DNA of 64,000 nucleotides from an uncultured bacterium. Its GTDB lineage: Bacteria; Patescibacteriota; Gracilibacteria; BD1-5; UBA6164. Below, in pieces: positions 2,508-52,246 of the stretch (positions are counted from its first letter, which is position 1; every line of letters begins with the position of its first letter). The stretch is taken from assembly GCA_942490775.1 (NCBI GenBank), contig CALNYL010000013.1, forward strand, positions 22,981-86,980. The letters are read 5' to 3'. A program made the translations under genes and the position numbers. Below the pieces are notes generated by a model. It saw nothing but the letters and a program-made list of their open reading frames with translations. It ran no database searches and was not told the origin of the DNA.

Positions 2508-2554
2508 GTAGCCCTCTTCCTTTTGTATTAAAGGAAGAGATTCAGAAATGGATT
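2508..2554 (+). repeat. Hairpin repeat family copy 1
   Basis: GTAGCCCTCTTCCTTTTGTATTAAAGGAAGAGATTCAGAAATGGATT. A 10-bp stem CTCTTCCTTT/AAAGGAAGAG, with the conserved 5' GTAGCC and 3' ATTCAGA-ATGG flanks shared with the other copies. Confidence 0.8.
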
Positions 2555-2560
2555 ATAATA

Positions 2561-2590
2561 AAAAAAGCTACAAATTTTGTAGCTTTTTTT
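2561..2590. terminator. Bidirectional rho-independent terminator between trpS and the convergent antiporter gene
   Basis: AAAAAAGCTACAAA-T-TTTGTAGCTTTTTT is a perfect palindrome with an A-run before and a T-run after. It lies between convergent stops at 2435 and 2601. Confidence 0.65.
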
Positions 2591-2600
2591 ATATCTTATT

Positions 2601-3983
2601 TTAACTAGTCTTAATTTGAATATAAAAGTGTAATATTTCAAACTGAATATACCGAACTAAAATAGAAGCAATATATCAAATAAGAACAGTCCGAAAATAT
2701 TTCATATGAGCAGAAAAAGTATAAACTCACTTCATCTTTCACATAACTCAAACTCAAGCAGCACTACCGAAACTAATTAAACTTCAACCAATTCAAGCAG
2801 TAAGAGTAATAAGTAACCACTGATCAAGTCACATAGTTGGATCAGCCTTAACTACCGCACTCATAACGGGAACATTATCAACAATAGCAGAAATAAATCA
2901 TACTCATATATTTCAACGAGTTTGTCATATATGTTCATATAAAACTGATATATATTCAAGGAATCATAAGAAATGAAGAGCTCAAACAGCCGATAAGATA
3001 CCAAAGAAAAATAGCAAAGTATCATTTTCTATAAGTTTTATACTAGCAAATACATCAAATGTAACTTTATACCTTCTTCTCTTTAAGAAATAAGCATATA
3101 ATTTTAGGATAGATAATCAAAATAACATTCACCACATAGCAGGAAAATGAAAAAATTGATGAGACAATACAGAAACAACAATAGTTCATATTCATATACC
3201 TATAATAGCCTTAGAACCAACTTTTAATTTAGGTTTCTTTTCCTTTTTTAAATCAAACTTAGGCTTTCACTTTGGTAAAAATCTAGAAAGCAAAAATCAG
3301 GTAACCAACCAACCAATAATAGAAGCAGGAAATAAAGAGAAAAACTCTAAAAATTGTCATTTTTCAGCTGTCCAAACCATAAGAGTAGTTATATCACCAA
3401 AAGGACTCCAAGCTCATCAAGCATTTGCAGCAACCACAATACTTATAGCACAAGGAACTAAAAAACGCTTATTATCTTTATCTATGGTTAAAATTACAGT
3501 AGATAGAATAAGGGCAGTTGTTAGATTATCAGCAATAGGACTTAGAAAGAAAGCAATTGAACCAATAACCCAAAATAACTTTTTATAACTCCGTCACTTG
3601 GATACCAATTTATATTTCAAAACCTGAAAAACTCTTCTATCAACAAGAGTTTCAATAAAAGTCATAGCAACAAACAAAAAGAAATATATTTCTGATATCT
3701 CTAAAATTAATTCTGATAATCATTCATTTAAAACATCTTTATCTAATCCATTAATAGCATAATAGAATCCAATTAACATAAAAAGAGAAGTTCACATAAA
3801 CATAGCAGGTTTAGCCTTATTTATATTATACTTCTCTTCTGTAGCAATAAAATAGTAACCAATAATGAAAATAATAACTGAAACTATTCAAACCCAAGTT
3901 CATGTGAGATTCCCAGTTACATGAGTAGCATTTACTACCGTATCAACAAGAGCCCCTGTAAGACTCCCAGTTGTTTCACCCAT
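2601..3983 (-). CDS. nhaD: NhaD/ArsB-type ion transporter (Na+/H+ antiporter NhaD-like), 460 aa
   Basis: Minus-strand frame checked codon by codon; no TAA or TAG. Polytopic membrane protein with AANAGGAWSPFGDITTLMVW and SAIVDNVPVM motifs typical of the NhaD/ArsB permease family. Many TGA=Gly codons. Confidence 0.75.
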
Positions 3984-4132
3984 ACAATTAAATTAAATAA
4001 TAAAAGCATCTAAAAATAGATGAGGAAAAAGCAGTATAATAGAAAACTATAAATAGTAAATTTTTTTATATAAATTAATAAATCTGTTAAATTATTTACG
4101 ATATATAGAGATATCTTCAAAATATTTTTTAG

Positions 4133-5807
4133 CTTTTTTCTGAAAATAATATTTTCAGAAAAAAGATTCAAAATAGAATGTCGTAAGATTAAAAATATTC
4201 GTAAGACATAAATGCCTCTAGCAGCCTGTACTAAGAAAAACCGTTAAGAAAATTTAAATGAAACTCGTTAATAAGTGTAATTTAAATTTTTAGGTTTTTC
4301 GTCGTTTTTGCTCTGAAATTGCAATATCTAGTTTCTTTGTTTTTCTTATCTTAAATTTATTCATCCAAGGATGCTTTTTTCAAGTTCTTTCATAATAAGA
4401 TTTTTTCTTGTGTTGACTTTTCTCTTTTTCCTCTTCTTTCTGAATTGTATCTATTTCTTCTAAATATTCAATTTCTTTTTTCATCTCAACAAAATCTCAT
4501 TTATTAGCAGGGGCCATAGGTAATTTATATACTCTATTTCTTTTTTCTTCTAATTCCTTTGATAATAGATATTTTCAATTTTTTGAGAAATATATTTTTC
4601 AATCTAAATGTTCTTCTACTATTATCAAATCTCACTTATATAATGTCCTCATCTCCATCCTTATTTCTATATAATTGATAATATTTATTATTAAAAGCAA
4701 TTGTAAAATCATTTTTCAACTTTCTTTTTGATTGTTTAGAAAATATCTGATTAATATGATTTTTTTCATCATTACTTAATTCTATATGTAAGTTTGATTT
4801 TCATTCTGGTTCTATACTAAATTGTCTATTAAATTTAGGCAAAAATTCTATTTCTAAAAATTTATTTGCATCATCTATATTAGAAATATTTGCCTCTCTT
4901 AATTCTTTTACTAGTCGATCTTGAAGTGTAGAATTCATCCTTTCTACTCTTCATTTTCATTCTGCTGAATTTGCAAATATGAGTTGTATTCAAAGTATTT
5001 GACAAGCTTTTCAGAATTGTGTCGGAAGCTCTTTATCGTTTGTAGCATTTGGATGATTAATTTTATATGTTGCAAATTTATCTAAATATATTCATCTTGG
5101 TTTTCAATTTTTTTTAATATAGTTTTTCCAGAAATTAAATGTAGGTTGATTCATTCTGATTTATCAAACTTAGCTGTGGCTATTCCTGTGGAATCATCTA
5201 CTGCAAGAAGTAAGCAAAGCTCTTCTCATCAGTTTCTATTTTCAACCATTTATGATAACTTCAGTCATATTGTACCATTTCTCAATAATTTTCTCTTCTT
5301 TTTCTCTGAGTAAATTGTTTTGTTATTTTTCTTTTTTTACTTTACAGTCATTTTCTTATTATTTCATTTCTTAGAGTTGGCATACTATATTTTTATATTA
5401 TGTTTTTCTGCTAGTTTCTCACAAAAATGTGTTATATTATAATCAGAATATCTTTCTTCTCTTAGTTTTATTATTTCTTTATAGTTTGTTGGATCATGCT
5501 TATGATTTGATTGTTTTCATCGAGATTTATGTATTAATCATTGTGGTCATTCTTTTATATATCTCTTTTTTATTATTCTTATTTGTCTTTTACTTTTTCT
5601 TAATAATTCTCTTGCTTTGTCGTTTGTGATTTCTTTGTTTAATTTTTATCTATTATATTTTTTATCTAATTCTTTTTGTCATTTGTAAATAGTTAGTCTA
5701 ATTTTTTTGATTAAGTTTATTTGTTACTTAATCTTTATCATATTTGACATTTCTATTTTTTACTAAAATGACATTTTAACTTTTTTTCTACATTTTCAGA
5801 AAAAAGA
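4133..5807 (-). mobile_element. Putative boundaries of a decayed ISNCY-like insertion sequence
   Basis: The 16-nt ATTTTCAGAAAAAAGA occurs at 4151-4166 and 5792-5807, on either side of the transposase relic. An inverted copy at 4133-4147 gives a perfect 15-bp-stem palindrome at the left end. Confidence 0.4.
4290..5690 (-). pseudogene. ISNCY/IS1202-like DDE (rve) transposase, decayed
   Basis: Recognisable blocks are spread over three frames: RQIRIIKKRYIKEGPQGLIHKSRGK, YDGSYHKW, LAVDDSTGIATAKF, NGKPRGIYLDKFATYK, ANSAEGKGRVERMNSTLQDRLVKELR, and EEHLDGKIYFSKNGKYLLSKEL. There are at least 3 frameshifts plus in-frame TAA/TAG codons. Confidence 0.75.
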
Positions 5808-5871
5808 ATTGCTATTTTTTAAAAAAAGGTTACAAGTATTAGATTATTTTTATTTTATAACTTTTTTGCTC

Positions 5872-7673: not shown

Positions 7674-7724
7674 TTTTCCTATAACTCAGAAAGTTTTGAC
7701 ATAAAACTCAAATGGAATATAAAA

Positions 7725-7766
7725 TAGATTAATAATTTATCAAAAAAAATTATTAATCTATTTTTT
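7725..7766 (+). terminator. Rho-independent terminator after the SulP gene
   Basis: A 13-bp stem TAGATTAATAATT / AATTATTAATCTA followed by TTTTTT. Confidence 0.6.
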
Positions 7767-7790
7767 ACTTTTTTAAAGAAATAAAAAATT

Positions 7791-9182
7791 ATGAAAAAAA
7801 ATATTATTGATAAAATTTGGGAAAAACATGTTGTAAAAAAATGAGACTGAGAACCAGACTTATTTTTTATAAACCTACATCTAATACATGAAGTTACCTC
7901 TCCACAAGCCTTTTCTATGCTAGAAGAAAAAAATATATGAGTATTTGATACAAGTAGAACATTTGCAACTATTGACCACTCTATACCTACAAAGAAAAAA
8001 AGAGATGACTATGCAGATGAAAGTGCAAGAAATCAAGTAGAAACTCTTATAAAAAATACAAAAAAATATTGAATAACACTATTTGATGATAAGTCTGGAA
8101 AACAGTGAATAGTCCATATCATATGACCAGAAACCTGATTAACACAACCATGAAAAACAATAGTATGCTGAGACTCACACACCGCCACTCATTGAGCTTT
8201 TTGAGCATTGGCTTTTGGTATTTGAACAACCCAAGTAGGTCATGTTCTAGCAAGTCAATGTTTACTACTAGACAAACCAAAAACTATGAAAGTAGATTTT
8301 ACATGAACCCCAAGTAAATATTTTTCATCTAAAGATGCAGTACTACTTCTGATACAACAAATAGGAATCCAATGATGAACAGGTTATGCAATGGAATTCT
8401 GTTGAGATTATATAAGAAATATGTCAATGGAATGAAGAATGACAATCTGTAATATGGCAATAGAATGTTGAGCAAAATCAGGTTTAGTAAGTCCAGATGA
8501 AACAACTTTTGAGTATCTAAAATGAAAAGAATATGTTCCAGAAAACACAGAAAAATCAATAAAACAATGGAAAGAAATAGCCTCTGATGAAAATGCCGAA
8601 TATGATAAAGAAATAGTTATAGATATAAATGAAGCCTTACCAGTAGTCACTTGGGGAACAAATCCTGAACAATCAGTTTCTATAAATGAAAAAATACCAT
8701 GACCAGATGACTTTGAAGACAAAGCAAAAGGCTTTGCCTGTAGAAAATCTCTTGATTATACAAAACTAATTCCATGAGAAAACATAGAATGAACAAAAAT
8801 AGACTATGTATTTGTATGAAGCTGTACAAACTGAAGAATAGAAGACTTTAAAATCGTTGCTGATATACTAAAAGACAAAAAAATAAAAGACTGAGTAACC
8901 GCTTTTTTTGTACCATGAAGTCATGAAGTAAAAAATATGTGTGATAAATTAGGATATACAGAAATCTTTAAAAATGCAGGTGCCCAGTTCAGAGAACCAT
9001 GATGTTCTATGTGCCTAAGTATGAACTGAGATGCTGTTCCTGAATGAAAAAGATGCATATCTACCAGCAACAGAAACTTCGTATGAAGACAGTGAGAATG
9101 AAGCTACACCCACCTAGCTAGTCCACTTATGTGTGGGATAGCTTGTATAACAGGAGAAATAACAAATCCAGAGAATTATTAA
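7791..9182 (+). CDS. leuC: 3-isopropylmalate dehydratase (aconitase-family) large subunit
   Basis: 463 aa. Motifs [46 protein letters not shown] and CSMCLSMN. Frame check passes. Confidence 0.92.
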
Positions 9183-9185
9183 CCT

Positions 9186-9225
9186 CACCACTGAATCTCC
9201 TCTCCTTATAGGAGAGGAGGGCTAC
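9186..9225 (-). repeat. Hairpin repeat family copy 2 (inverted orientation)
   Basis: The reverse complement reads GTAGCCCTCCTCTCCTATAAGGAGAGGAGATTCAGTGGTG. Confidence 0.8.
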
Positions 9226-9230
9226 AAATT

Positions 9231-9275
9231 GTAACCTCTTTCCCTAGAAAGGGTAAAGAATTCAAGATAGAGGTC
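9231..9275 (+). repeat. Hairpin repeat family copy 3, head-to-head with copy 2
   Basis: GTAACCTCTTTCCCTAGAAAGGGTAAAGAATTCAAGATAGAGGTC. Confidence 0.75.
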
Positions 9276-9314
9276 AAACCATGTAAGAAAAAATATTAAT
9301 CTAAAAAACTTTTT

Positions 9315-10194: not shown

Positions 10195-10381
10195 AGTGTT
10201 TTAGTTTTAGAATTTTAATCTTCATCTTTTTTATTTTCTTTCTCATTTAATGATCAATCACGGAGCAGATTAATGATATTTTTTCCTTTGTTTTGTTTGG
10301 ATTAGGAACATAAGTAAGTAACACCTTTTTTATAGGATTACTAACTAATAACATTTAAATTTCCTTAAAAAAGGAAATTAA

Positions 10382-13397: not shown

Positions 13398-13474
13398 ATA
13401 CTGTATGTAATACTATAGTGTTATATGTAGTATACAATATAAAGTAATTTTTTGCAAACTTTTAAATAGTTTAT

Positions 13475-13503
13475 TTCCCCTTCCTTAGCAAGGAGGGAGC
13501 TAG
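13475..13503 (-). repeat. Hairpin repeat family, short copy
   Basis: The reverse complement reads CTAGCTCCCTCCTTGCTAAGGAAGGGGAAA. It sits between the AbiEi start and the ABC copy 2 stop. Confidence 0.5.
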
Positions 13504-13512
13504 GGGGTGGTT

Positions 13513-15291: not shown

Positions 15292-15330
15292 ATATTACAA
15301 ATAAACTACAAATTCACAAATGCAAATATA

Positions 15331-15358
15331 TTCCCCTCCGTAGAATGTAGGGGCTATG
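15331..15358 (-). repeat. Hairpin repeat family, short copy
   Basis: The reverse complement reads CATAGCCCCTACATTCTACGGAGGGGAA. Confidence 0.45.
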
Positions 15359-15367
15359 GAGTAAAAA

Positions 15368-15550: not shown

Positions 15551-15618
15551 TGCCAAGTATGCAGTAAAAGTTTAAACTACAGAAAAATGCTTAAGTTGGG
15601 GCTAGGAATAATAAAAAT

Positions 15619-15707
15619 TATAAAATTACAAAGGAGCAGTTGAGGTTTTTGGAGGGGAAAGTTTTGGAGTTGAGGGAGTTGGTGGAAGAGATTTGTGGTG
15701 AGGAGAT
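15619..15707 (+). repeat. 89-nt direct repeat, copy 1
   Basis: TATAAAATTACAAAGGAGCAGTTGAGGTTTTTGGAGGGGAAAGTTTTGGAGTTGAGGGAGTTGGTGGAAGAGATTTGTGGTGAGGAGAT. It matches 17183-17272 with scattered A/G differences. Confidence 0.8.
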
Positions 15708-17015: not shown

Positions 17016-17182
17016 ATTTATTTTTTGCTACTAATTTACTTATTTATATATATTATAACATAATATTTTATTTTATTCAAATTTATGTGAATGACTTAGA
17101 TAAGTCTATTTAGAGATATTAATTAGATATTTATGGTTTAAATGTATTAAATATACTTACTGTTACTAGGTTTAACAAAAAC

Positions 17183-17272
17183 TATAAAATTAAAAAAAGA
17201 GCAGTTGAAGTTTTTGGAAGGGAAAATTTTGGAGTTAAAAGAGTTAGTGGAAGAGATTTGTGGGGAGGAGAT
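17183..17272 (+). repeat. 89-nt direct repeat, copy 2
   Basis: TATAAAATTAAAAAAAGAGCAGTTGAAGTTTTTGGAAGGGAAAATTTTGGAGTTAAAAGAGTTAGTGGAAGAGATTTGTGGGGAGGAGAT. Confidence 0.8.
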
Positions 17273-18184: not shown

Positions 18185-18880
18185 ATGCTGATAACCTCCT
18201 TTGACCTATACTGAAACGAAAAAAGCCAACACCATGGAATAGAAATATACCATGATATATCTTTTGATTGAAAAAAATTACAACACAGCACCCCACAAAA
18301 AAAAGAAGTCTGAAAAAACGAACTAACAAACACCCTAAATAAAAGCGATTACAAAATCTGCCACAACTTCTACTGATACGACTGACCAAAACTACCATCA
18401 CTAAAAAATCACCACACCAACAACATAGACACCCTACTAATAGACTGCCTAATATCCATTAATCAAACACACCACAACCTAAAAAAATCCATAAACAACA
18501 CACCACTAGAAGATGCACACACCACTTTCAAAGTACTAGAAAAAAATCTAATAAAATTTCATAATTTTCCTTTTGAAATAAAAAATACACTATATTCATT
18601 ACTTATAAAATGCGAAAAATACAACGACTTTTTTATTTTCTATAACAAACTCACCTGATGAAAACTAAAAATTCTTAATAAATCTGAAATAATTGAAAAT
18701 ATTTCTAATTTATTAGACCAAAAGCAAATAAACTCTTCTGAAAATATCAAACTATTAGAAAAATATCTAATAGAGGAAAAATATTCAAAATATTGAAGCC
18801 CTCTTCCCTTATCTAAGGGAATAGATTCAGAGATGGGTTATTTTAGTAAAAACTCCACAAATAAACTAGCACTAGCATAG
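18185..18880 (+). CDS. Hypothetical protein (231 aa) whose last ~28 codons run through a hairpin repeat
   Basis: ATG 18185 to TAG 18878-18880. A/C-rich coding-strand composition like neighbouring plus-strand genes. It is in the same frame as the downstream helicase gene. Confidence 0.5.
18795..18839 (+). repeat. Hairpin repeat family copy inside an ORF
   Basis: GAAGCCCTCTTCCCTTATCTAAGGGAATAGATTCAGAGATGGGTT. Confidence 0.8.
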
Positions 18881-22817: not shown

Positions 22818-22977
22818 AGAGAGAGTTATTTTTTGTAAAAGAATATTAGGTATATTATTAGAAAAAATAGGGGAGAGTACATTATTGCATATGCTGTAGC
22901 TTTTTTCATAGAGAAAATTTTATGAATATAAGATTTTTTTATTAAATCTGTATAGAGAATTTTAAATATAATCCATC

Positions 22978-24465
22978 CTAAATTTTTTCCTTTCATACGA
23001 AAGGAAGGAAGCTACATTTTTCTATTTCTCATTTTATAACATACCTATCTAAACTTAAAAGTTTCACTTTTACTATATCTCATATTTTTATATTTTCTGG
23101 TCACTTGAAAAATATTTCTTTAAAGTTTCTAGTTCTACCAAAAAAGTTTGAGTCCTTTTTTCAATAAATTAAAACATCTTCTGTTTTATCAAGCATTAAT
23201 TTATTTCTTTTTTTTATATTATCAAGTAGTAAATCATTTAATATATGCCATCTTTCGGCTTTTATCTCATCACTAATATCGTCTGGATATAATTTAGATG
23301 CTATTGTTCATTTTCTTATTGAATATCTTGCATTGTATGCAAAGTCAAATTCACATTCTTTAAATGCTTTTATTGTATCTTCAAACATTTTTTCTGTTTC
23401 TCAGCTAAATCATACTATTATATCTGTAGATACTGAAAATAGTGGATCTTTGTTTCTTAGATAAAAGACCATATCTTTAAAGTCTTTATATTTGTGTTTT
23501 CTATTCATTTTTTTTAGAATTTCGTCGTTTCCAGATTGCAGGGCAAAGTGTAGGTAGTTACAGGTGCTTTTTAGGTCAAAGTGAGAGTCTAGTATGTCTT
23601 TTGTCATATCGTGGGGATTGCTTGAAGTGAATCTAAGCCTATTTAGTCATTTTATTTTATCTAGTTCATTTAGTAGTTCTCTGAAAGGTGATATTTCTTG
23701 GTTTTCTTCTTCTTTTAGTAAAAAAGGGGATATATGATTTCATCAGGTCATTAATGTATTTTTTCAATAACTATTTACATTTTGTCCTACTAATATTATT
23801 TCTTTGGCTCATGATTCTACTGTTTCTGTTACTTCTTTTACTATTTCTGATATGTTTCTACTTTTTTCTTTTCATCTTGTATAAGGTACTATACAGTATG
23901 TACAGTAGTTATTACATCATGTTTGGATTATTGTTGTTCAAATTGCTTTGTTTTCTCTTAACTGTTTTATTTTTAGGTAGTCATCAAATTTGTGGTCTTG
24001 TCATATGTGTTCTGAAAATATATGACTTAGTATGAGTGATAGGTATTTTATTTCTTCTATTCTGAATACGAAGTCTATTTTATCGGTTCTTGGAAATAGT
24101 TTATCATCGTTGTTAAATATTTGTTTTGAGTTTTCTAGGAGTTCTATTGTTTTTGCTCTGTTTCTTTTTGATTCTTTTTCTAGATATTTTTTATTTACTC
24201 AGGTTTTTTTTACCATACATCATGTAATTCATATGATTGGTTTCTGAGTTTTAGTTTTTTTTGTGTTTTTAAATATTTTTTCTATATATCAGAAGACTCT
24301 GTCTTCTCATTTTTGTCTTACACTACAGGTATTGAAAATAACAATATCTGCTTCTTCTGTTTCTTTGGCTTTTATAAGTCATGCTTGTAGCAATATCATG
24401 TTTAGTTTTTCTGAATCTGCAATGTTCATTTGGCATCCAAATGTTTGTATGAAGTATTTTTTCAT
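22978..24465 (-). CDS. miaB: tRNA methylthiotransferase MiaB (radical SAM)
   Basis: 495 aa, all codons checked. Motifs [43 protein letters not shown], and a TRAM-like C-terminus. The last ~13 codons are encoded by a hairpin repeat. Confidence 0.92.
22981..23015 (-). repeat. Hairpin repeat family copy forming the miaB 3' end
   Basis: The reverse complement reads GTAGCTTCCTTCCTTTCGTATGAAAGGAAAAAATT. Confidence 0.75.
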
Positions 24466-26068: not shown

Positions 26069-26311
26069 ATGAAAAACACAAGCAAAAACATATGAAAATC
26101 CCTAGCCTTTATTCAATCTAAAATAGATGATATATTCAACTTCGGTTTTAAAAAAATATCAGAAATAGGAGATAAACAATTATCAAAAGACACACATAAA
26201 GTTAAAGAAATAACACACAAAATGCTATGATTTATCTGAAACATATGAAAAAGCTACTACAGTAGCTACAACAAAATAAAAGAAGAAAAATCAAAAAACT
26301 CTGAAAAATAA
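26069..26311 (+). CDS. Small hypothetical protein (80 aa)
   Basis: ATG 26069 to TAA 26309-26311 with 4 TGA=Gly codons. No motif. Confidence 0.4.
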
Positions 26312-26352: not shown

Positions 26353-26397
26353 GTAGCCTCTTCCCCTTATGTAAGGGGAAGAATTTAAGTTAGGGTT
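26353..26397 (+). repeat. Hairpin repeat family copy
   Basis: GTAGCCTCTTCCCCTTATGTAAGGGGAAGAATTTAAGTTAGGGTT. A 9-bp stem CTTCCCCTT/AAGGGGAAG. Confidence 0.85.
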
Positions 26398-26429
26398 ATT
26401 GAATATTTACAAACTAAAATTATATCTAT

Positions 26430-27719
26430 ATGACAAACAAAACCTGATTCAATGCATTTTTTAATGCCGTAACATCGTCACCAGAATTTAAAGCAGTAGT
26501 AGAAAACGACTACAAAGAAGACATGGAAAATGCCATCAAAAAAATGGAAAAAACAATAGAAAAAGCAAGTAAATTACCACAAAAGCTACAAGAAACCTTC
26601 GCCACAAAAGAAGCCATAGAAACCTGAGAATCACTAACTGTAAACTACTACGATGATGATTTTTATAAAGACTTAAAAAAACAAGAAAAAACTAAAGAAA
26701 AATGAGAAAATGAAGTAAATCTAGATATAAAATACCCAGAAAAGAAAAATCCAGACACATTCGGATTTTTTTGAGTAGCAGGAATGCAAGAACTAAAACA
26801 AGACCTTCAAGACAACTTCATAGCACCCTTGAAATTTAAATTTATGGTCGAAAAAATAAAAACAGAAATAGACCAAGAAAAATCAAAAACAAAAAAAGCA
26901 AAAAAACAACAAATGCAGAAAAAAATCTATGAAGTCTATAAAAAATTCAAAGTCTGAATTCCAACCTGAATGCTATTCTACTGACCGCCATGAACCTGAA
27001 AAACATTCATCACAAAAAAACTAGCCGAAGAACTATGAGCAGGACTAATTAAAAAATCAGTCTGAGAATTTGGATCAGAATACCACCACAAAACAAGCAA
27101 AAACATAAAAGAATTTTTTACCAAAGCCAAAACAGCAAGCGAATCTTGACCAATTATTTTATTTCTAGACGAAATAGACTCACTACTCTCAAAAAGAACA
27201 AACAATATAGATGCAAATAAAGCAGAGGAAGTTTCACAATTTCTCCAAGAATTTAATGCTCTAAACGAAGCCCCAAACCTGATAGTAATAGCCGCAACCA
27301 ACAGACCAGACCATTTAGACTCAGCCATCCTAAGATCATGAAGACTAGATAAAAAAATATATATATGACCACCCGATGCAAAAGCAAGAGAAGAACTATT
27401 TAAAATACACATAGAAACAGAAAAAAGACCCCACAAAAAACTTAACTACAAACTCCTATCTGAACTCACAGAAGATTATGTATCATCAGACATAGAAGCA
27501 ATATGTGATGAAGCCTCAAGAGCAGCCAGTAAAAACATACTCTCTATTGCTCACTCTCTCTGAGATGACTCAGATTATTCTAGTATAGAAGCTAGTTTAG
27601 ACGACCATTATATAACCATGGAACTACTAAAAAATACCATAAGGAAAATGCCCTCATCTTTAAAAATGGTTGATATGACTGTGTTTGAAGAGTGGGAGGA
27701 AAAAAACAGTAATCTATAG
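26430..27719 (+). CDS. Classic-clade AAA+ ATPase (single AAA domain) with a unique ~190-aa N-terminal region
   Basis: 429 aa. Walker A GMLFYGPPGTGKT, Walker B IILFLDEIDSL, second region of homology [29 protein letters not shown]. Confidence 0.85.
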
Positions 27720-35830: not shown

Positions 35831-35870
35831 TTAGCTTCTCAATAGAGGTTTTCCCCCTTTGCTATAGAAT
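35831..35870 (+). repeat. Hairpin repeat family, variant lacking the first hairpin
   Basis: TTAGCTTCTCAATAGAGGTTTTCCCCCTTTGCTATAGAAT aligns with the outer parts of the 52178-52246 copy. Confidence 0.55.
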
Positions 35871-35906
35871 AAAAAGAAACTTAAAATACTTTAACCCAAA
35901 AAAACT

Positions 35907-40674: not shown

Positions 40675-42567
40675 ATGCAACTATCAAAAATAAGAAACTT
40701 TGGGATAATAGCCCACATAGACCACGGAAAATCAACCCTAGCAGACAGACTACTAGAAATAACATGAACCATAGAAAAAAGAGACATGAAACACTGACAA
40801 ATGCTAGATACCATGGAACTAGAACAAGAAAGATGAATTACCATAAAGTTACAACCAGTAAGAATGAACTATAAATGATACGAACTAAATATTATAGATA
40901 CCCCATGACATGTAGATTTCCAATACGAAGTAAGCAGAAGCCTAGCCTCAGTAGAATGAGCCCTACTAGTAATAGATGCAACACAATGAATAGAAGCACA
41001 AACACTATCAAATGTATACATAGCCATAGAACAAGACCTAGATATAATACCAGTAATAAATAAAATAGACCTACCAGCCGCTGATGTACCAAGAGTAGAA
41101 GAAGAAATAATAACCCTACTATGATGCGATAGGGAAGACATAATACCAGTCTCAGCAAAAACAGGAGAAAATGTAGAAGCAATCCTAGAAGCAGTTATAA
41201 AAAGAGTAAGACAACCCAAAATATTCTCAGGTGAAGAAAATATAGAAAAACAAGAACTAAAAGCCCTAGTATTTGATAGCCAATACGACTCATACAGATG
41301 AGTAGTATCATATGTAAAAGTATTCTCAGGAGAAATCAAAAAATGAGACACCCTACACTTCTTAAACACAAACAAAAAAATAGAAGCACTAGATGTATGA
41401 TACTTTTCACCAAGTTACAAAAGTGATAAATCCATATGACTATGATCTATAGGATATGTTGTAACATGACTAAAATCCATAAGAGAAGCAAAAGTATGAG
41501 ACACACTATGGAAAGCAAAGAATATAGAATGACCAAAAGACAAACCAGAAGATGCAAAAGCCATAGACTGATTTAAAAAAGTAGTACCACTAATCTATGC
41601 ATGAGTATTCCCAATGAGTAGTGATGAATACCCATTACTAAAAGATGCAATGGAAAAACTTATGCTAAACGACTCAGCACTCCATAAAGATGCAGAAGTA
41701 AGCCCAGCACTAGGAAACGGATACAGATGTTGATTTCTAGGACTATTACATTTAGACATAGTAAAAGAAAGACTATTCAGAGAATTTGATATGGATGCCA
41801 TAATGACATCCCCACAAGTAACATACAGAATAAAAATGCTATGAGACAAAACAAGTGAATACTCTAGATTTAGAACCGAAATCATTTGACAAGAACAATC
41901 AAGCTGAAAACCATTTACATACATATATATATCAAACCCAGAAGATATGCCAGAAAGGGAAAAATACCTAAGCATAGAGGAACCAATAGCAAAAGTGGAG
42001 ATAATAACACCCACAGAATTTGTTTGAAACCTAATGCAACTATCACAAGAAAGAAGATGAATATTTAAAAATCAGCAGTTTATAGATAGCTCAAGAGTTA
42101 TGCTAACTTACGAACTACCAATGAATGAACTAATATGAGATTTTTATGATGAGTTAAAAAGCCTATCAAGCTGATATGCAAGCCTAAACTATGAGTTTTT
42201 AAAATACAAAGAAGACGATTTAACAAAATTAGATATGCTAATAGCCTGAGAAAAAGTATGAGCACTAAGTATGATATGCCACAGAGACCAAGCCAGATAC
42301 ATCTGATGAAAGGTAACTAAAAAGCTAAAAGAAGTAGTCCCAAGAGCTATGTTTGCAATAGCAATTCAAGCAGCAGTTTGAGGACAAGTAGTAGCAAGAG
42401 AAGATTTATCAGCTATGAGAAAAGATGTAACAGCAAAGCTTTATGGTTGAGATATATCAAGAAAGAAAAAGCTTTTACAAAAGCAAAAAAAAGGTAAAAA
42501 GAAAATGAAACAGTTTGGTAAAGTTAGTTTACCAAGTGAGGCATTTGTGAATTTGTTGAAGAAGTAG
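40675..42567 (+). CDS. lepA: Elongation factor 4 (LepA)
   Basis: 630 aa. Motifs [32 protein letters not shown] (Gly is TGA at 40906-40908), NKIDLPAA, and the C-terminal [13 protein letters not shown] block. Confidence 0.95.
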
Positions 42568-42618
42568 GGGGATATAATATTCAAGAAAAAATATATTTTA
42601 AATTTTAAAAAAATAATT

Positions 42619-43473
42619 ATGAAGAAAAAAGTTTTATTTATTTTGTTTCTTAGTTTGATTTTTGCTTCTTGTCAAAAAGAAGACTTAAATAAAAATGTAA
42701 CAATAAATACTAAATCTTGAGTTGTAGAAACTCCGAATAACTCAGAAAATATTGAATCTAATAAAGAAAAAGAGTTTGAAAATAAGTTATCAAACCTAGC
42801 TAAGCAGAAGGAAATTGAAACAAAATTATCAGATTTAGAAAAGCAAAAAGAGGAATTAGTTACAAAAAATGATGTATTACAAAAAAAATTAGATGAATGT
42901 CTTTCTAAGAAGGTTAATAAAGATGGTTTAATGTTAAATGAACAAAGTAAACATTTTTCTTTTCTGTTAAATGAATGAAGTATTTATAAAGTTCCTTTTG
43001 GTCACTGAAATGTTATTGGTGGAGAAGATTTAACAAAAGATTTTGAAATCATTAATAAAGATTGCAATAAAGAGCAATGAACGGTAAAACTATTTGTTTC
43101 TCCAACTTTATTTGATAATCAAAGATATATCTTATCTGAATATAGGGAATGTCGTTGCAATTCTGGTTGTGGTAGTCAATGAGAATACATATTCAATACA
43201 GATACTCTAAAATATATATCAACTAAAGAAATAAATAATGAATTATCAAAATATGATGAAATAAAATGAAACTTTTGATATCAAATAAAAGATATAAAAA
43301 ATGATAATTTAATTCTAAATATATTTAAATGAGAATGGGATACTTGATTGTGAAGTTCTCAGGAAGATTTAGTTAGTGACTTAAATCTTTCAATTAAAGA
43401 GATAGAAGAAAAGTATGAAGTGAAGTTTGTAAGGGAAATTATAGTTAAAGATTTATCTAGATTATTTAAATAG
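42619..43473 (+). CDS. Lipoprotein, hypothetical (284 aa)
   Basis: MKKKVLFILFLSLIFASC is a signal peptide plus lipobox Cys. A coiled-coil-like segment is followed by a Cys-containing domain. Confidence 0.7.
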
Positions 43474-43571
43474 CTTTTACAAAAGCAGAAAAAGGGGAAG
43501 AAGAGGATGAAGCAGTTTGGTAAAGTGAGTTTGCCAAGTGAGGCATTTGTGAATTTGTTGAAGAAGTAGGG
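43473..43571 (+). repeat. Duplicate of the lepA 3' end (99 nt), non-functional copy
   Basis: It matches 42471-42569 at about 89 of 99 positions, and the last ~45 nt, including TAG, are identical. It would encode [31 protein letters not shown]. Confidence 0.85.
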
Positions 43572-43600
43572 AAATATTTTAAAAATTAACAATAATAACC

Positions 43601-43978: not shown

Positions 43979-43994
43979 AAATACAAATAAAAAA

Positions 43995-45089: not shown

Positions 45090-45112
45090 TATTCTTCTTC
45101 CTATCCATAAGC

Positions 45113-45727: not shown

Positions 45728-45776
45728 TATATTTATAACTTAATAGTAGATAATAAACTTATATGGAAATAGAAAT

Positions 45777-45874
45777 GTAGCCTCTTTCTCCTGAGAAGGA
45801 CAAGTGAAGAAAGGAGTACTTTGTACGACTATTCTGAATTTGAAGCTTGCAGAGAGAATTTAGAGAGAGGTTTT
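45777..45874 (+). repeat. Hairpin repeat family, composite copy with an internal insertion
   Basis: GTAGCCTCTTTCTCCTGAGAAGG ...51 nt... AGAGAGAATTTAGAGAGAGGTTTT. The outer parts match the 52178 copy. Confidence 0.6.
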
Positions 45875-45957
45875 TTATTTCCATACAACTTTAATATAAC
45901 TTTATCATATAGTAGTTAATCTTGCAATATTCAAGTATAATTGAAACATAAATAAAA

Positions 45958-46803: not shown

Positions 46804-46874
46804 TTTATTGTATTTATTGAAAATATATAATTTATCTGCTAGTATTGTAACAATATTATTTTATAAAAAAAATT

Positions 46875-47780
46875 ATGAAAGAAAAGAATATTAAAGTATA
46901 TTTTTTTAGAATATTAGATTTATTTCTTATAACAATATTATTTTTTTGTTTAATTATTGTACTATTTTTATTTTATTTTAATTATTGTGAAGTTAATTCT
47001 CTAGAATTAAAATATTTTGTTATATCAATAATATTATTTTTGATTGTTAATATTTTTTTTCATATAAAATCTTTTATTTTGCTAAAAGAAAATTATAAAA
47101 AATGAATTAAACTATCTATAATATCAAAAACTATATCTTTTATAATATTATTAATATTAATTGCTTTTTTTTATAATTTTTATACTCCCCCTATATGATT
47201 TGGTTCATCAAATGAAACATTAAGAAAACCAGTAATCTACCTCTATCCCCAAAAAGAAACAAATATCAAAGTTCAACTTAACTACAAATGAAAACTAATA
47301 GCAGACTATCCAAAATACGATGAAAAAATAAACTGATGGGAAGTAAAAGCATATCCAGACGGAACACTTATAAACAAAGCAGATAACAAAGAATACAGTT
47401 ACCTATTTTGGGAATGAAAACCAAGCAAACCAATAAACTGGGATTTATCAAAATGATTTGTAATACCATGAGAAAACACAAGAGAATTTTTACAAGAAAC
47501 ATTATCAAAAATGTGACTAACCCCAAAAGAATACAATGAATTCATAGTATACTGGTATCCACTGATGAAAGATAACAAATATAACCTAATCCACTTTGCA
47601 GAAGAACAATATACAAATGAAGCACCACTAAAAATAATCCCAAAACCAGACTCAACCTTAAGAGTATTTATGGTATTTAAATGATTAGATAAAAAAAAAG
47701 AAATAGAAAAACAAGAATTAAAAAGTTTTGAAAGAAAATGATTTAGTGTGGTTGAATGGTGAGGAACTGAAATTAAGTAG
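46875..47780 (+). CDS. Membrane protein with a conserved ~190-aa C-terminal domain, tandem copy 1 (301 aa)
   Basis: N-terminal TM segments, then PVIYLYPQKETNIKVQLNYKGKLIADYP ... YSYLFWEGKP ... IVYWYPLMKDNKYNLIHF ... VVEWGGTEIK. Confidence 0.7.
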
Positions 47781-47805
47781 TTATTTATATTTTAATAAAA
47801 GTTTT

Positions 47806-48897
47806 ATGAATATTAAAGTTAAGCCCCCTATGGTTATAAATATTTTAAGAATATTAGATTTTATAATTATTATATTTTTTATTATTCTTTTATTTATATT
47901 TATCGTATCTTCAATTCAAATATGGGAAAACTCAGCCTTTAAGCTAACAGGAAAGATATTTGTATATATAATAATACTATTTTTATTTATAAATATAATA
48001 TTAAATATTATTTCTTTTAACTTATTAAAAAATAATTACACTAAATGACTTAATTTATCTTTGATATCTAAGTTTTTACTTCTCTTTCCCTTATTTACTA
48101 TTTTCTTTTTTGCTACAAGCTCTTTATATTATAGTTTAATCTTATTAATTCTACCATTTATTTCAATATTATATATTATTTATTACAAAATTCACCTAAA
48201 GATAAAAAGGGAAAATCTAAAAATAAAATATAATTTTATAGGTTATATAATAAATATACTTATGAGCCTTTTGTTATTATTAGTTATTTTTTTAGGAACA
48301 TATGAGTTTTTTATTATTCAATCTTCTGATTGAATACAAGCCAAACCAGTAATCTATCTCTACCCAACTCAAACTACAGACATAAAAGTTCAACTAAACT
48401 ACAAGTGAAAACTAATAGCAGACTATCCAGAATACGATGAAAAAATAAACTGATGGGAAGTAGAAGCATATCCAGATGGTACACTTATAAACAAAGCAGA
48501 TAACAAAGAATACAGTTACCTATTTTGGGAATGAAAACCAGATGAACCAATAAACTGGGATTTATCAAAATGATTTGTAATACCATGAGAAAACACAAGA
48601 GAATTTTTACAAGAAACATTATCAAAAATGTGACTAACCCCAAAAGAATACAATGAATTTATAGTATACTGGTATCCATTAATGAAAGACAATAAATACA
48701 ACCTAATCCACTTTGCAGAAGAACAATATACAGATATTGCACCACTAGAAATAACTCCTAAACCAGATTCAGTTTTAAGAGTCTTTATGGTATTTAAATG
48801 ATTAGATGAAAAAATAGAAATAGAAAAACAAGAAATGAAAAACTTTGAAAGAAAATGATTTAGTGTGATAGAATGGGGAGGGACAGAAATTGAGTAG
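47806..48897 (+). CDS. Membrane protein with the same C-terminal domain, tandem copy 2 (363 aa)
   Basis: ATG 47806 chosen (MNIKVKPP, compare MKEKNIKV in copy 1). The TM region is longer and divergent. The C-terminal domain is nearly identical to copy 1. Confidence 0.7.
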
Positions 48898-49024
48898 TTA
48901 TTTATATTTAATATTCTCTATTCCCATACAAGTTTAATTAAAAAAAACACAATACTGAAAAATAAAAACATCATTTCCAGTGAAAAAAATACCAGAACAC
49001 TTTTTACCATTTTCCGAGACTATA

Positions 49025-49062
49025 AAAAACCTTTTCGTTTTAAAGAACAAAAAGGTTTTTTT
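49025..49062. terminator. Bidirectional terminator between the tandem-copy gene and tRNA-Cys
   Basis: An 11-bp perfect stem AAAAACCTTTT / AAAAGGTTTTT with A and T runs on either side. Confidence 0.6.
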
Positions 49063-49073
49063 GATTACTTTTT

Positions 49074-49148
49074 TGGAGGTGCCTAGCGGAATTGAACCGC
49101 TGTGAACGGTGTTGCAGACCGTCGTATAAACCACTCTACCAAGGCACC
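49074..49148 (-). tRNA. trnC: tRNA-Cys (anticodon GCA)
   Basis: Cloverleaf: acceptor GGTGCCT/AGGCACC; anticodon stem ACGGT/ACCGT with loop CTGCAAC; T arm AGCGG-TTCAATT-CCGCT; discriminator U73 (a Cys identity element); encoded CCA. Confidence 0.9.
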
Positions 49149-49171
49149 CAAAATATTAAACCAAACGACTT

Positions 49172-49218
49172 GTAGCTTCTTTCAATTCGTATAAAAAGAA
49201 AGAATTCAAGTTAGAACT
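49172..49218 (+). repeat. Hairpin repeat family copy next to tRNA-Cys
   Basis: GTAGCTTCTTTCAATTCGTATAAAAAGAAAGAATTCAAGTTAGAACT. Confidence 0.75.
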
Positions 49219-49263
49219 ATCAGAATTATATAAAAATTAATAAAAAATCAAATTTTTATTTTT

Positions 49264-49860
49264 TTATTTTTCTGTTTTTTCTTCTTTTTCTTCTTTTTCT
49301 TCTTCTAATATACATTTAAAGGTTTTCAAAATATCTTCATATCTAGAATAATCATCTATACTAGTTGATAGAGCAATAGTTAAAAGATATGAATCTTCAT
49401 CACATATATACCCTACTTGCATAAATTTTACTCTTGGAGTATTTTCATTATATTTTGCTTCAAAAACATAAAGTTTTGATTCTTCCTCATCATTAAATAT
49501 AAAATCTTTCGCTTCTAATTCATAATAACTTTCATAATCATTTCTAGCTCATAAATTTGTAAACTTAGAAAAATCCTTTGAGTTTATTTCTTCTTTTATC
49601 TTATCCTTTAGAATAAGTAGATTATTAGAAAAACCATCTTTAGGTTCTATAGAAGATGCAACTAGAGATATTTCTGCATAACTAGGTTTCGGCAACATAG
49701 TAGAATCTCAAGAATCTATAATATTCCAAGATGCAGGTATCCCTACTTCAAATTCATCTAGAGTTTTTAACACTAGTCAATTATCTGAGCCAGTATCTCA
49801 ACAAGATAATAATCAGAAAATTAAGATAAAAAATATAAAGGTTTTATTTTTTATGCTCAT
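49264..49860 (-). CDS. Lipoprotein, hypothetical (198 aa)
   Basis: MSIKNKTFIFFILIFGLLSCG (lipobox LLSC). Acidic E/K-rich C-terminal tail. Confidence 0.65.
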
Positions 49861-50186
49861 AGTTTAATTGTAAATGGTAATAAGGTTCCTATTAACGCTA
49901 AAATTATTATTAATAATAAAATAAAAAATACTATTTTATTTTTCCAGAAAAACATTTTTTTTGCCAAGAAGTATAAAACAATAAAAAATGATACAACAAA
50001 TAGTGTATATGTATAAATAAAAGTTTTTTCAAATATTTCAGAATAGAAATTTGCTATTAAAAAAAAGTAGTTTATAAAAAACAATAGAGCTGAAATGAGA
50101 AATATCATTTTAGACGATTTCAATCTAATTGTTAATAAATCCTTATTTGAAGCAGAAACTTTTTTTATTTTTTCTAATAAGACCAT
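49851..50186 (-). CDS. Hypothetical membrane protein (111 aa)
   Basis: The track ORF is extended 2 codons past TGA to TAA 49851-49853. Three hydrophobic segments. Confidence 0.5.
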
Positions 50187-50273
50187 AGTTTACTTGATTT
50201 TTTTATAAATAATTATATACTCAGCCTTTATAATAACATAAAAGTGTAAAAATATAAAATAATTTTATAAAAA

Positions 50274-50561
50274 ATGTCTACAAAAAAATCTCAAATAAAG
50301 AAAGTATCAGAGAAGCTTATAAAAATTCCTTGAAACAATGAGAAATTAATTTGAAATATAGAGGATATTTTGCATTATGTTGATTTGTTAGAGGAAGTAG
50401 ATATCACTTGAGTTCAGCCAACTATCTCTGTAGTTGAGACTTGAACTGCTATGAGAGAGGATATAGAGATAGAAAAAGAAGTTTTACCTAAAGAACTTTT
50501 AAATTGTTCAAACCAAAAGGTTGTAGCAAATCAAATAATTATACCAAACATAATGAAATAA
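50274..50561 (+). CDS. gatC: Asp/Glu-tRNA amidotransferase subunit C
   Basis: 95 aa. ILHYVDLLEEVDITGVQPT ... MREDIE pattern and size fit GatC. Confidence 0.75.
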
Positions 50562-50565
50562 TATT

Positions 50566-51612
50566 ATGTTAAAAACATTAGAATTAAGAAATTTTAGAAA
50601 TTTTTGAAATTCTGTTTTTGATTTTGATAATCATAAAAATTTAATAATCTGACCCAATTGAGAATGAAAAACTAATATACTAGAATCTATTGGTCTTTTT
50701 AGTGATAATAATATACTTGATATAAATTATGGAAATTTAGTAAAAAAATGAGAAAAGTTTTTTTATGTAAAGATAATAATGGAAAATAAAGATGAATTTT
50801 CTGTTTCTTATGATAAGGAAAATAATAAAAAGAAGTATTTTATAAATAATAAGTCTACATCAAAAAAAAACTTGGTAAATTCATTCTCAAAAACAGTTTC
50901 ATTTCATCCTATGATTATGAATATGATGTATTTATCACCATCTCTTAGGAGAGGGTTTCTGGATAGTATTTTGGCTAGTTCTTATCCTGATTATGGAAAA
51001 GAGCTTAGAGAGTATAAAAAAATTCTTATAAATAGGAACAGAACTTTAAAAAATATAAATGAGTGAAAGAGTCAGAGGAGTGAGGTGTTTTTTTGGAATG
51101 ATGTTTTTATAAAGAAGGCTTGTTCAATTTATGTTTATAGAGAGAAAATATTAAAGTATATAGAGAAAAATATACATTTATTAAAAGAGTATCTAAATGA
51201 TAAGGTAAAAGATATTTCTTTTGTTTATAAAACAAAAATAGATAGGGAAGATGCAGAAAATAGTATTAAGTGTTATATAGAAAAGAATCTTGATAGAGAT
51301 ATAATTCTACAAAAGACTTATATCTGACCTCATTTGGATGATTTTGAACTAAATCTTGATTGATTTTCTTTAATAAATTTTGCATCTAGATGAGAGGTGA
51401 AGAGTTTAATATTGTGATTAAAGTTTATAGAGGCAAAATTTATTAGTAGTATAACTGAACATAGTCCTATTTTTATAGTGGATGATATTTTAAGTGAGCT
51501 TGATGGAATGCATATAAATATTTTGCTTAAGAATTTCTGAAATAATCAGGCTGTAATAACTTCTATAAAGGATATAGATCTAGAAGGGGAGAGGATATAC
51601 TTGGGGTTGTAG
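50566..51612 (+). CDS. recF: DNA replication and repair protein RecF
   Basis: 348 aa. LELRNFRNF, Walker A IIGPNGEGKTNILE (all three Gly are TGA: 50650, 50659, 50665), ASRGEVKSLIL, IFIVDDILSELD. Confidence 0.9.
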
Positions 51613-51651
51613 AAAAAGCTGGTTTTAAATTTAAATAAGTTTTTTTCACAC

Positions 51652-51694
51652 AAAAAGGAGGAAGTAAAGTTTTAGACTTTACTTCCTCCTTTTT
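51652..51694. terminator. Bidirectional terminator (19-bp perfect stem)
   Basis: AAAAAGGAGGAAGTAAAGT-TTTAG-ACTTTACTTCCTCCTTTTT between convergent genes. Confidence 0.7.
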
Positions 51695-51718
51695 CTTGTA
51701 TTTTTTAAGAGCTTTCTT

Positions 51719-52123
51719 TTATGCGGCTTGTGCATAACTATGATCATCAGCAACATTTACAACAGTCGGTACAACATCAGGATTTTGTAATTCTTGGAAA
51801 TATTCTGCTCAAGGCTGTATTTTCTTATAAACATCAGCTTTTCCCAATAACAATGCTCTTACACCATTCTTAACTGGTTGAAGAAAATCTCATAATTTTG
51901 CTTCTTCAGGAGTCATATCTGCTATGTTTTCAGTATCTAATTTTACTTTCATTATAGGTTCTAATAAACTTAAAGCTATAGTAGTATCTTCATTAATTGT
52001 ATTTTGTACTTCTTGGAGTGTACTTGCTTGTACTTTAGAAGTTTTTGGCGAATATCAAGTCAACCTATCTGGAGAATTTATATTTAATTCGTAAACTGCT
52101 CATCAATAATTCATTGCATTCAT
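51719..52123 (-). CDS. Hypothetical protein (134 aa)
   Basis: ATG 52123 to TAA 51719-51721. No motif. Confidence 0.5.
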
Positions 52124-52177
52124 AATATTTAAAATTAAGATTTAAAAATTTTTATTTATAAAATAACTAATTTTTTT

Positions 52178-52246
52178 GTAGCTTCTTTCCCCTGAGAAGG
52201 GGAGAGAATTTAGAGAGAGGTTCCTCCCCCCTTCGCTACAGAATTT
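52178..52246 (+). repeat. Hairpin repeat family, longest (possibly full-length) copy
   Basis: GTAGCTTCTTTCCCCTGAGAAGGGGAGAGAATTTAGAGAGAGGTTCCTCCCCCCTTCGCTACAGAATTT. The terminal GTAGC...GCTAC can close the element. It overlaps the stop of the M23 gene. Confidence 0.75.

Follow-up and report, generated by a model that had tools for sequence, protein, structure and literature searches.

Short structured repeats of about 48 nt are scattered through a 64-kb stretch of DNA from an uncultured bacterium of the Gracilibacteria (contig CALNYL010000013.1, positions 22,981 to 86,980), called the window here. Each repeat unit carries the three arms of a purine-motif triple helix on a single strand, and related units in other Gracilibacteria stand as inverted pairs on both sides of a gene for a small nuclease of the DUF559 family. 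With a probability of about 60%, the repeats are DNA-level elements, namely the ends and remnants of a selfish DUF559 cassette, and not RNA signals. An earlier note on this stretch had described them as a family of GC-rich hairpins at the ends of genes.

The repeat family and its triplex code

A covariance model (CM) was built from an alignment of 8 window copies and was then run on the window and on loci fetched from other genomes. In the window it finds exactly the 8 founding copies, with E-values of 4e-12 to 1.5e-8, and the next match has E 0.06. The loci of relatives are ~8-kb pieces around the matches of a sequence pattern, in a scan that took one genome per species (GTDB); they are cited by L numbers, and proteins by P numbers. 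The scan gave at least 99 stretches, about three quarters of which come from 24 assemblies (labelled Gracilibacteria, 'Peribacteria', Patescibacteria group or unclassified bacterium). Family-wide counts are among the matches listed, and the collection is biased towards one arm type, since the harvest pattern fits only 4 of the 9 window copies.

The family is real. A strict IUPAC pattern matches the window 5 times, versus 0 matches in 100 dinucleotide shuffles. Outside the window, the CM adds at least 123 copies (91 + 32) in the loci of 24 Gracilibacteria-type assemblies. It finds no copy in ~25 chance pattern matches from other phyla, and it rejects all 3 pattern matches in viral contigs. Within the 8-copy alignment, compensatory changes from C-G to T-A occur at 8 of the 10 hairpin pairs, so the stems do covary. 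A direct-repeat search of the window misses the family, whose copies are too short and divergent for it.

Read from 5' to 3', a unit consists of a GTAGCC head, a 10-nt pyrimidine (Y) arm, a loop of 4-7 nt, a complementary purine (R) arm, a turn of 3-4 nt (A-TTC-A) and a purine-rich third (H) arm. The head, given as GTAGC(C/T), the two hairpin arms, the 4-7 nt loop and the ATTYAR turn had all been described correctly before. What had been taken for a conserved 3' flank is no flank at all but the purine arm in mirror image, the key feature that the earlier description missed.

The triads of a purine-motif triple helix are G·G-C, A·A-T and T·A-T (the centred dot marks the third-strand contact), and its third strand is antiparallel to the purine strand. 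The H arm can be read in this way throughout the family. In an alignment of 91 copies, it is the mirror image of the R arm after the ATTCA turn. To the left and right of the central T, positions 2-12 hold G/G, A/A or A (left)/T (right) in 92.6% of cells. Shifting the register by 1-4 nt reduces this figure to 36-52%, and shuffling the columns gives 68 +/- 1.1%, with a maximum of 71%. At mirror position 6, both arms have G in 48 copies and non-G in 38, and only 2 copies are discordant.

When the Y arm is included, C-G·G occurs 318 times, T-A·A 275 times, T-A·T 136 times and T.G·G 56 times. In 85 distinct copies from 24 Gracilibacteria assemblies, 770 of the 850 triads (90.6%) conform to the code of C-G·G, T-A·A or T-A·T, and 46 of the 85 copies are perfect at 10/10. 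These covariation counts take in related copies.

Three properties of the arms argue for structure rather than mere duplication. Non-identity between the arms is tolerated almost solely as T for A. At levels where the stem has a T.G wobble, such as position 6, the third strand follows R and not Y. Finally, the Y-R-H plan is common to unrelated sequence families (L043, L052/L095, L084 and window position 13474).

As in class II triplex motifs, the Y, R and reverse-Hoogsteen blocks follow in order on one strand, with loops of 4-7 and 3-4 nt, the same restriction of triads and an antiparallel third arm. Run with no information on the family, a generic class II finder recovers 4 window copies with strict settings and 7 with relaxed settings, versus 0.05 and 0.4 per shuffle in Markov-shuffled sequence. 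From the covariation we infer that the repeat is a class II purine-motif intrastrand triplex unit. The BoxC/PIT/TM_ECO repeats of E. coli belong to the same class (Hoyne & Maher 2000, cited in PMC4666352).

The other strand of the repeat would have to use a pyrimidine motif. This motif is fitted by 69% of triads and by no copy perfectly. In addition, T.G wobbles number 69, compared with 19 C.A mismatches. Because of this poor fit and the excess of T.G over C.A, the element's own strand is the one under selection.

Purine-motif triplexes form in DNA at physiological conditions, but not in RNA (Holder et al., PMC4666352). At gathering score, Rfam 15 matches the window only at tRNA-Cys, and nothing in it matches the repeats. 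Together with the unbiased orientation of the family and the antisense copies of the window, both described below, these results make a role in RNA unlikely and indicate a fold of single-stranded DNA.

A closing stem (P1) between GTAGCC and a 3' GGTTAT was considered and rejected. It is 83% paired, shows almost no covariation, is lost in relatives and clashes with the mirror register. We treat this pairing as a by-product of the near mirror-symmetric pyrimidine arms.

Arrangement and gene context

Copies that lie between co-directional genes are in the sense orientation 18 times and antisense 25 times. Another 15 are found where genes converge and 12 where they diverge. In the window, 4 of 9 copies are antisense to the neighbouring genes. 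A position at gene ends, as claimed earlier, is true of some copies but too narrow for the family, which occupies tandem, convergent and divergent intergenic regions as well as the inside of open reading frames (ORFs). With no T-run after the copies, and with 25 of 43 copies between co-directional genes antisense to them, the earlier view that these are not ordinary terminators holds. An intrinsic (Rho-independent) terminator was rejected on the same grounds.

Many copies occur in pairs. Among the loci listed, 17 pairs are head-to-head, 1 is tail-to-tail and 4 are in tandem, and further doublets are present in the second batch. The head-to-head pair reported at 9178-9278 of the window is genuine, and its arrangement is the one that prevails family-wide. 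In such doublets, the GTAGCC heads face each other across an AT-rich spacer of 4-15 nt (up to about 110). The two halves are mostly of unlike subtypes, so that GTAGCCTC...GAATTCAAG is combined with GTAGCCCT...AGATTCAGA or GTAGCCCC...GGATTCAGG.

The window doublet lies between leuC and leuD. A doublet is found at the same place in L002 and L003, whose LeuC proteins are 78% and 74% identical to that of the window; the arms differ and the plan is kept. In L001 (LeuC 69% identical), there are no copies in 8.6 kb. In several species, copies also recur close to the der/miaB gene pair.

Of the first 100 copies, 24 are located inside long ORFs (109 to 1365 amino acids, aa). Their in-frame hosts are DnaE (in two species), RecG, a helicase with two copies, transporters and a large membrane protein. 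The labels UvrD-like for the helicase and AcrB-like for a transporter are what we take these proteins to be from their sequences, not from profiles. The DnaE insert carries a VASF..GE..IQE.G peptide in both species.

In some cases the position of a copy varies between homologues. In L084, a doublet encodes 42 aa that are inserted in frame in an ABC transporter and are absent from its two paralogues in the window. A miaB-like gene has its copy at the 3' end in the window, and its homologues in L009 and L062 have one at differing internal positions. These variable copies appear to be insertion polymorphisms. The repeats thus add in-frame segments of 16-45 aa to core proteins such as DnaE and RecG, and they probably fragment assemblies and confuse gene calling in genomes that use genetic code 25.

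A DUF559 nuclease cassette

In the RecG protein of L027, two copies bracket an in-frame domain that matches Pfam DUF559 (PF04480) with E 8e-32. A tblastn search with this domain finds 6 DUF559 genes in the fetched loci. Each of the 6 has an inverted class II motif on either side, with the 5' end of the motif towards the gene. The ends are not always of one type. Both belong to the GTAGC family in L027, L013 and L088 (complete genome CP042461.1), both are of a GC-rich, BoxC-like type in L043, and there is one of each in L052 and L095. The gene is free-standing with its own ATG in L013 and L088. In L027, L052 and L043, the entire unit lies in frame at one RecG site, between helicase motifs I and Ia.

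The link to the nuclease also emerges from the neighbouring genes as a whole. When 210 ORFs within 300 nt of copies were clustered without prior expectation, DUF559 was the only recurrent non-housekeeping family in the loci listed. No transposase family recurs among these ORFs, where no Y1 profile search was made. The RAYT/TnpA(REP)-type partner proposed by the earlier note was not seen near the copies; their recurrent neighbour is DUF559.

The cassette is polymorphic in recG. Among the best 120 homologues of the L027 protein, about 20 have the DUF559 insert and are 756-880 aa long, compared with ~660-690 aa for uninterrupted proteins. Filled and empty proteins are interleaved at every level of identity. 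For instance, identity to L027 RecG is 91% for P0248 (828 aa, filled) and 90% for P0241 (688 aa, empty), and the difference is a clean indel. At the DNA level, about 520 nt in the filled recG replace 12 nt in the empty one.

Presence or absence of a nuclease at the same site of a conserved gene is a property of homing cassettes. No splicing motifs are evident in the RecG insert, which is translated through in frame. The solved structure nearest to the nuclease is 3HRL, an uncharacterised 'endonuclease-like protein' (E 1e-8).

Four other Gracilibacteria RecG proteins of 821-827 aa (P0268, P0304, P0312 and P0317) have a GNAT domain (PF13673, PF13508, PF00583) in place of DUF559. In these, the site between motifs I and Ia is uninterrupted, so the GNAT domain is a second, different addition to RecG.

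Origin of the repeats

The following sequence of events could account for the repeats. When the strand becomes single-stranded, Y and R would pair as a hairpin. H would then fold back antiparallel to R in the major groove and complete the G·G-C, A·A-T and T·A-T triads. Two inverted units with their heads inward bracket a gene of ~120 aa for a DUF559 protein, a predicted Vsr-like nuclease of the PD-(D/E)XK type, and so make up a cassette of ~0.5 kb. This cassette is gained or lost as a block, including in frame within recG. The solo copies and the head-to-head doublet of the window would be non-autonomous derivatives or remnants of DUF559 cassettes. They would persist where they do little harm, such as intergenic DNA, the 3' ends of ORFs and loops that tolerate in-frame additions.

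Formation of the triplex, an action of the nuclease on it and the route by which copies spread are parts of this scheme that we infer. A more specific version is tentative: the intrastrand triplexes might be the recognition structure at both ends of a mobile cassette, of a type not recognised before, driven by the Vsr-like DUF559 protein, and orphan BoxC/TM_ECO repeats might be decayed ends of such cassettes. That a Vsr-like enzyme might read the frequent T.G wobbles of the stem is pure speculation.

Several observations weigh against a selfish cassette. The leuC-leuD doublet is kept in three species, which could mean a host function instead of selfish persistence. By tblastn, there is no DUF559 gene in the window, the part of the source genome that was covered, and a nuclease partner in this genome is hypothetical. 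No target-site duplication is recognisable in the one comparison of filled and empty recG, where the inserted DNA reaches ~30 nt past each repeat. The DUF559 genes of another lineage (31% GC, L105-L108) have no triplex flanks, so the link with triplexes is not a general property of DUF559. Part of the triad covariation could come from the descent of subfamilies and not from independent changes. The GTAGCC head is conserved, yet it has no role in the triplex model.

The repeats could instead be a structural DNA motif domesticated by the host, for pausing of replication or transcription, nucleoid organisation or recombination hot spots; DUF559 would then be a separate homing element that targets the palindromic junction of doublets. 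This would suit the shared leuC-leuD doublet, the copies near der/miaB in several species and the triad code maintained in 24 assemblies. It would also suit L112, where an intact doublet adjoins a DUF559 gene and does not surround it, and the fact that TM_ECO has been tied to genome instability with no mobility gene nearby (PMC4666352). However, the in-frame insertions in essential genes and the variable positions look like insertion events, and cassettes flanked by unlike triplex families are easier to understand if the units belong to the cassette. We consider a domesticated motif unlikely.

Less probable still is a REP/REPIN system, in which a RAYT transposase (Y1 HUH), with its gene somewhere else in the genome, moves GTAG-headed palindromes as single-stranded DNA. 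A 5' GTAG directly before an imperfect palindrome is reportedly the signature of REPs. The units have this signature and also form inverted doublets, which resemble REPINs and BIMEs, and the G.T wobbles on their own strand indicate single-strand folding. On the other hand, the 210 neighbouring ORFs contain no recurrent transposase family, Y1-like or other. About 24% of copies are inside ORFs and so not extragenic, the mirror-repeat third arm is left unexplained, and a GTAG head is missing from the other triplex families around DUF559. Among the three options of the earlier note, a REP/MITE-like element comes nearest, in that the repeats are dispersed, form doublets, vary in position and bound a mobile nuclease cassette; no RAYT was seen near the copies.

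The remaining two options of that note, an RNA stability or processing signal and a small structured RNA, do not fit. An RNA element of any such kind, including a factor-independent terminator that lacks a U-tract or a 3'-end stabiliser, is the least probable explanation of all. It would fit the sense orientation after stop codons of the copies at 2508, 18795, 22967-23015 and 26353, along with the compensatory changes and good folding of the hairpin. It does not fit the unbiased orientation (18 sense versus 25 antisense in tandem contexts, with 12 copies in divergent regions), the 4 of 9 window copies that are antisense, or the lack of an Rfam family. Furthermore, about a quarter of the copies lie in ORFs, many of them being translated, and the third arm follows the purine-motif code, whose triplexes are reported not to form in RNA (PMC4666352).

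Comparison with known systems

The architecture of the repeats is known from BoxC/PIT/TM_ECO. What differs is the sequence family, its location in ORFs and the nuclease gene. Like the Gracilibacteria units, TM_ECO has a Y arm, a loop of 3-6 nt, a purine arm, a 3-nt loop and a reverse-Hoogsteen arm on one strand. The triads are the same, including T for A in the third arm. Both kinds of repeat are multi-copy and dispersed, have no strand bias relative to genes, and often occur as inverted pairs of two subtypes.

The differences are equally clear. The TM_ECO consensus is CCCTCNCCC N3-6 GGGNGAGGG N3 GGGNGAGGG, with an all-G/C-rich stem of 9 nt. The Gracilibacteria units depart from this consensus and have a stem of 10-11 nt with mixed A/G, a GTAGCC head and an A-TTC-A turn. 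Their host belongs to a CPR (candidate phyla radiation) class with 25% GC and genetic code 25. TM_ECO is reported to be always intergenic and never beside mobility genes (PMC4666352), whereas about one quarter of the Gracilibacteria copies are in-frame parts of ORFs and inverted pairs stand on both sides of the DUF559 nuclease gene.

No function, origin or partner protein has been found for TM_ECO (PMC4666352). If true, the cassette reading would give BoxC/TM_ECO-type repeats an origin and a mechanism. The association with DUF559, together with a cassette that is polymorphic in an essential gene, provides a candidate partner enzyme and a testable account of origin and spread. Base-by-base covariation of the purine motif across a bacterial class is also unusually clean comparative evidence for a selected DNA triplex. 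Literature searches in full text gave no paper that ties DUF559 to triplex or BoxC repeats and no account of the repeats in Gracilibacteria, the paper on the closed genome of L049 and L088 included.

E. coli MG1655 has a DUF559 gene of its own, ycjD. Around L104 5195-5440 (NC_000913.3, about 1351194-1351439), three features lie just downstream of it: a BoxC/TM_ECO copy about 170 bp off, a partial Y-R hairpin over the stop codon and a duplicated relic of the gene's own 3' end. Of 5426 complete E. coli genomes, 3378 have the gene and 38% are without it. One genome that lacks ycjD has a different gene set at the locus, with no clean empty site.

Other known elements share single properties with the repeats. 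REP, BIME and REPIN elements have a GTAG head 5' of an imperfect palindrome, and they likewise are short dispersed repeats with inverted doublets and signs of strand-specific folding. They differ in being without a mirror third arm, while the Gracilibacteria copies are also found in ORFs and have no RAYT near them. Rickettsia palindromic elements (RPEs) and MITEs resemble the repeats as short structured in-frame inserts, such as those tolerated in DnaE, RecG and transporters. The RPEs are unrelated in sequence and host, and none is known to carry a triplex code or flank a nuclease gene. By the usual features of MITEs, inverted ends are present here; the internal gene is a DUF559 nuclease and no known transposase, and no duplication is visible in the one comparison.

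Homing endonuclease cassettes are alike in that close relatives either have or lack a small nuclease ORF at one precise site in a conserved gene. In contrast to these, the DUF559 cassette involves no intein or intron. It is read through in frame and has structured inverted repeats at both ends, and its predicted nuclease is of the DUF559/Vsr-like kind.

Copies in the window

The earlier note listed 12 sites in the window. Ten belong to the family (8 clean copies, 1 split copy and 1 deletion derivative). The sites at 13475 and 15331, given there on the minus strand, are not members as described: neither has a CM match, and the first coincides with a motif of another, GC-richer class II family on the plus strand. 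Table 1 gives the positions of all of these features.

Table 1. Triplex repeats and related motifs in the 64-kb window.
Positions	Strand	Feature	Basis
2508..2557	+	canonical copy	CM 60.4 bits, E 9.8e-12; 9/10 triads
9178..9225	-	canonical copy, left half of doublet	CM E 4.9e-10; 10/10 triads
9231..9278	+	canonical copy, head GTAACC, right half of doublet	CM E 1.5e-8; 7/10 triads
13474..13512	+	class II triplex motif, second family	relaxed class II finder; no GTAGC-family CM match
15323..15361	+	decayed paralogue of 13474 motif	sequence comparison; no model match
18795..18842	+	canonical copy, head GAAGCC	CM E 2.4e-11; 9/10 triads
22967..23015	-	decaying copy	CM E 1.6e-9; overlaps 3' end of miaB-like ORF 22978-24465
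26353..26400	+	canonical copy	best CM match, 61.9 bits, E 4.2e-12; 9/10 triads; generic finder
35831..35875	+	deletion derivative of long form	comparison with 52178-52246; no CM match
45777..45875	+	split copy	CM half matches 45777-45820 and 45842-45875
49172..49221	+	AT-rich, partly decayed copy	CM E 1.3e-9; 7/10 triads
52178..52246	+	long form	canonical part 52178-52225, CM E 3.7e-10; generic class II finder

In the automatic register, 7 of 9 window copies score 7-10 of 10 triads. The copy at 2508 can serve as an example of the plan. Its head GTAGCC spans 2508-2513, the Y arm 2514-2523 and the R arm 2530-2539, and after the ATTCA turn the third-strand arm spans 2545-2554. This copy is located between the convergent trpS and gene 2601-3983 and is also recovered by the generic class II finder. 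Its hairpin, folded as DNA, has -8.1 kcal/mol with z -3.6.

Between the same two convergent genes, there is a perfect 31-nt palindrome, AAAAAAAGCTACAAATTTTGTAGCTTTTTTT, at 2561-2591. It holds GCTAC/GTAGC facing each other as in doublet junctions, without repeat bodies. The palindrome looks like a bidirectional terminator; its part at 2567-2585, which the earlier note compared with a doublet junction, may be a remnant of one.

The left half of the doublet overlaps the leuC stop codon. The two heads are parted by AAATT, and the fold of the whole doublet has -21.4 kcal/mol with z -5.9. ORF 18185-18880 runs through the copy at 18795 with its final ~29 codons. The decaying copy at 22967 has AA in its R arm, while the Y arm is still CC and the third strand still GG, so it is the purine arm that has mutated. 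The copy at 26353 sits between the co-directional genes 26069-26311 and 26430-27719, and the copy at 49172 between tRNA-Cys (49074-49148, minus strand) and gene 49264-49860 (minus strand).

The copy at 45777 is genuine and split by an insertion, as the earlier note had it. The inserted sequence CAAGTGAAGAAAGGAGTACTTTGTACGACTATTCTGAATTTGAAGCTTGC is ~50 nt long (about 45801-45850) and lies within the R arm; both neighbouring genes are antisense to the copy.

The long form at 52178, to which both neighbouring genes are also antisense, has a 4-nt ATTT turn and a C-rich extension, CCTCCCCCCTTCGCTAC. Read by eye, and with this turn allowed, its arms agree at 10 of 11 mirror positions. The view that 35831 is a deletion derivative is borne out by this copy: both ends are common to the two and the middle is absent. 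The derivative retains a 5' TTAGCTTCT and a 3' GAGGTT..CCCCC..TTTGCTATAGAAT.

The extension CCTCCCCCCTTCGCTAC occupies 52226-52246 in the long form and is shared with the derivative (35853-35875). Its sequence is similar to the third-arm complement of the other type of end in L052 and L095. The extension may be a fragment of a tail-to-tail partner.

A second, GC-richer triplex family

The motif at 13474 has the layout TTTCCCCTTCCTT AGC AAGGAGGGAG CTA GGGGGTGGTT, with CTA as the second loop and no GTAGC head. This GC-richer family (L043 and the window motif) is nearer to the TM_ECO consensus than the GTAGC family is. Both window sites of the family, at 13474 and 15323, are downstream of duplicated ABC-transporter genes. 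The decayed paralogue at 15323 follows a paralogous ABC-transporter gene fragment and lies beside a 189-nt direct-repeat family (10380/13511/15366).

BoxC-like units of the form CCCTCTCCT TGT AGGGGAGGG TTA GGGAGGGG flank DUF559 in L043 and make up half of the in-frame doublet in L084. The peptides SPQPSP..GEGE and PHPNPLLGEER recur beside GTAGC-family insertions in L010 and L015 (DnaE), L060 and L072. Judged by the peptides, they appear to be members of the GC-rich triplex family in translation.

Host genome and genetic code

The G+C content of the window is 25.4%. Under translation table 11, ORFs of 100 aa or more take up 24% of it, and with TGA as a sense codon they take up 119% (six frames summed). 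TGA codons outnumber all GGN codons together several-fold, and TGG is retained. When the window LeuC is translated with code 4 (public copy P0001), W appears exactly at the conserved Gly sites of the aconitase-family motif GDSHT...G.G. Because of the frequency of TGA relative to GGN and these W residues at conserved Gly positions, the genetic code of the window is code 25, with TGA as sense, as in Gracilibacteria.

Other features of the window

ORF 4636-5154 (minus strand, 172 aa) contains a GKGRVERMNSTLQDRL stretch and by eye looks like the C-terminal part of a DDE integrase-type transposase. It has no Pfam match at E 0.01 and was rejected as a candidate. On either side, it is bordered by about 650-720 nt of DNA that appears to be non-coding.

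Two pairs of direct repeats are unrelated to the hairpin family. The first, at 15613-15707 and 17178-17272, is 95 nt long, 83% identical and G/T-rich. The second, at 42466-42575 and 43468-43577, is 110 nt long and 89% identical.

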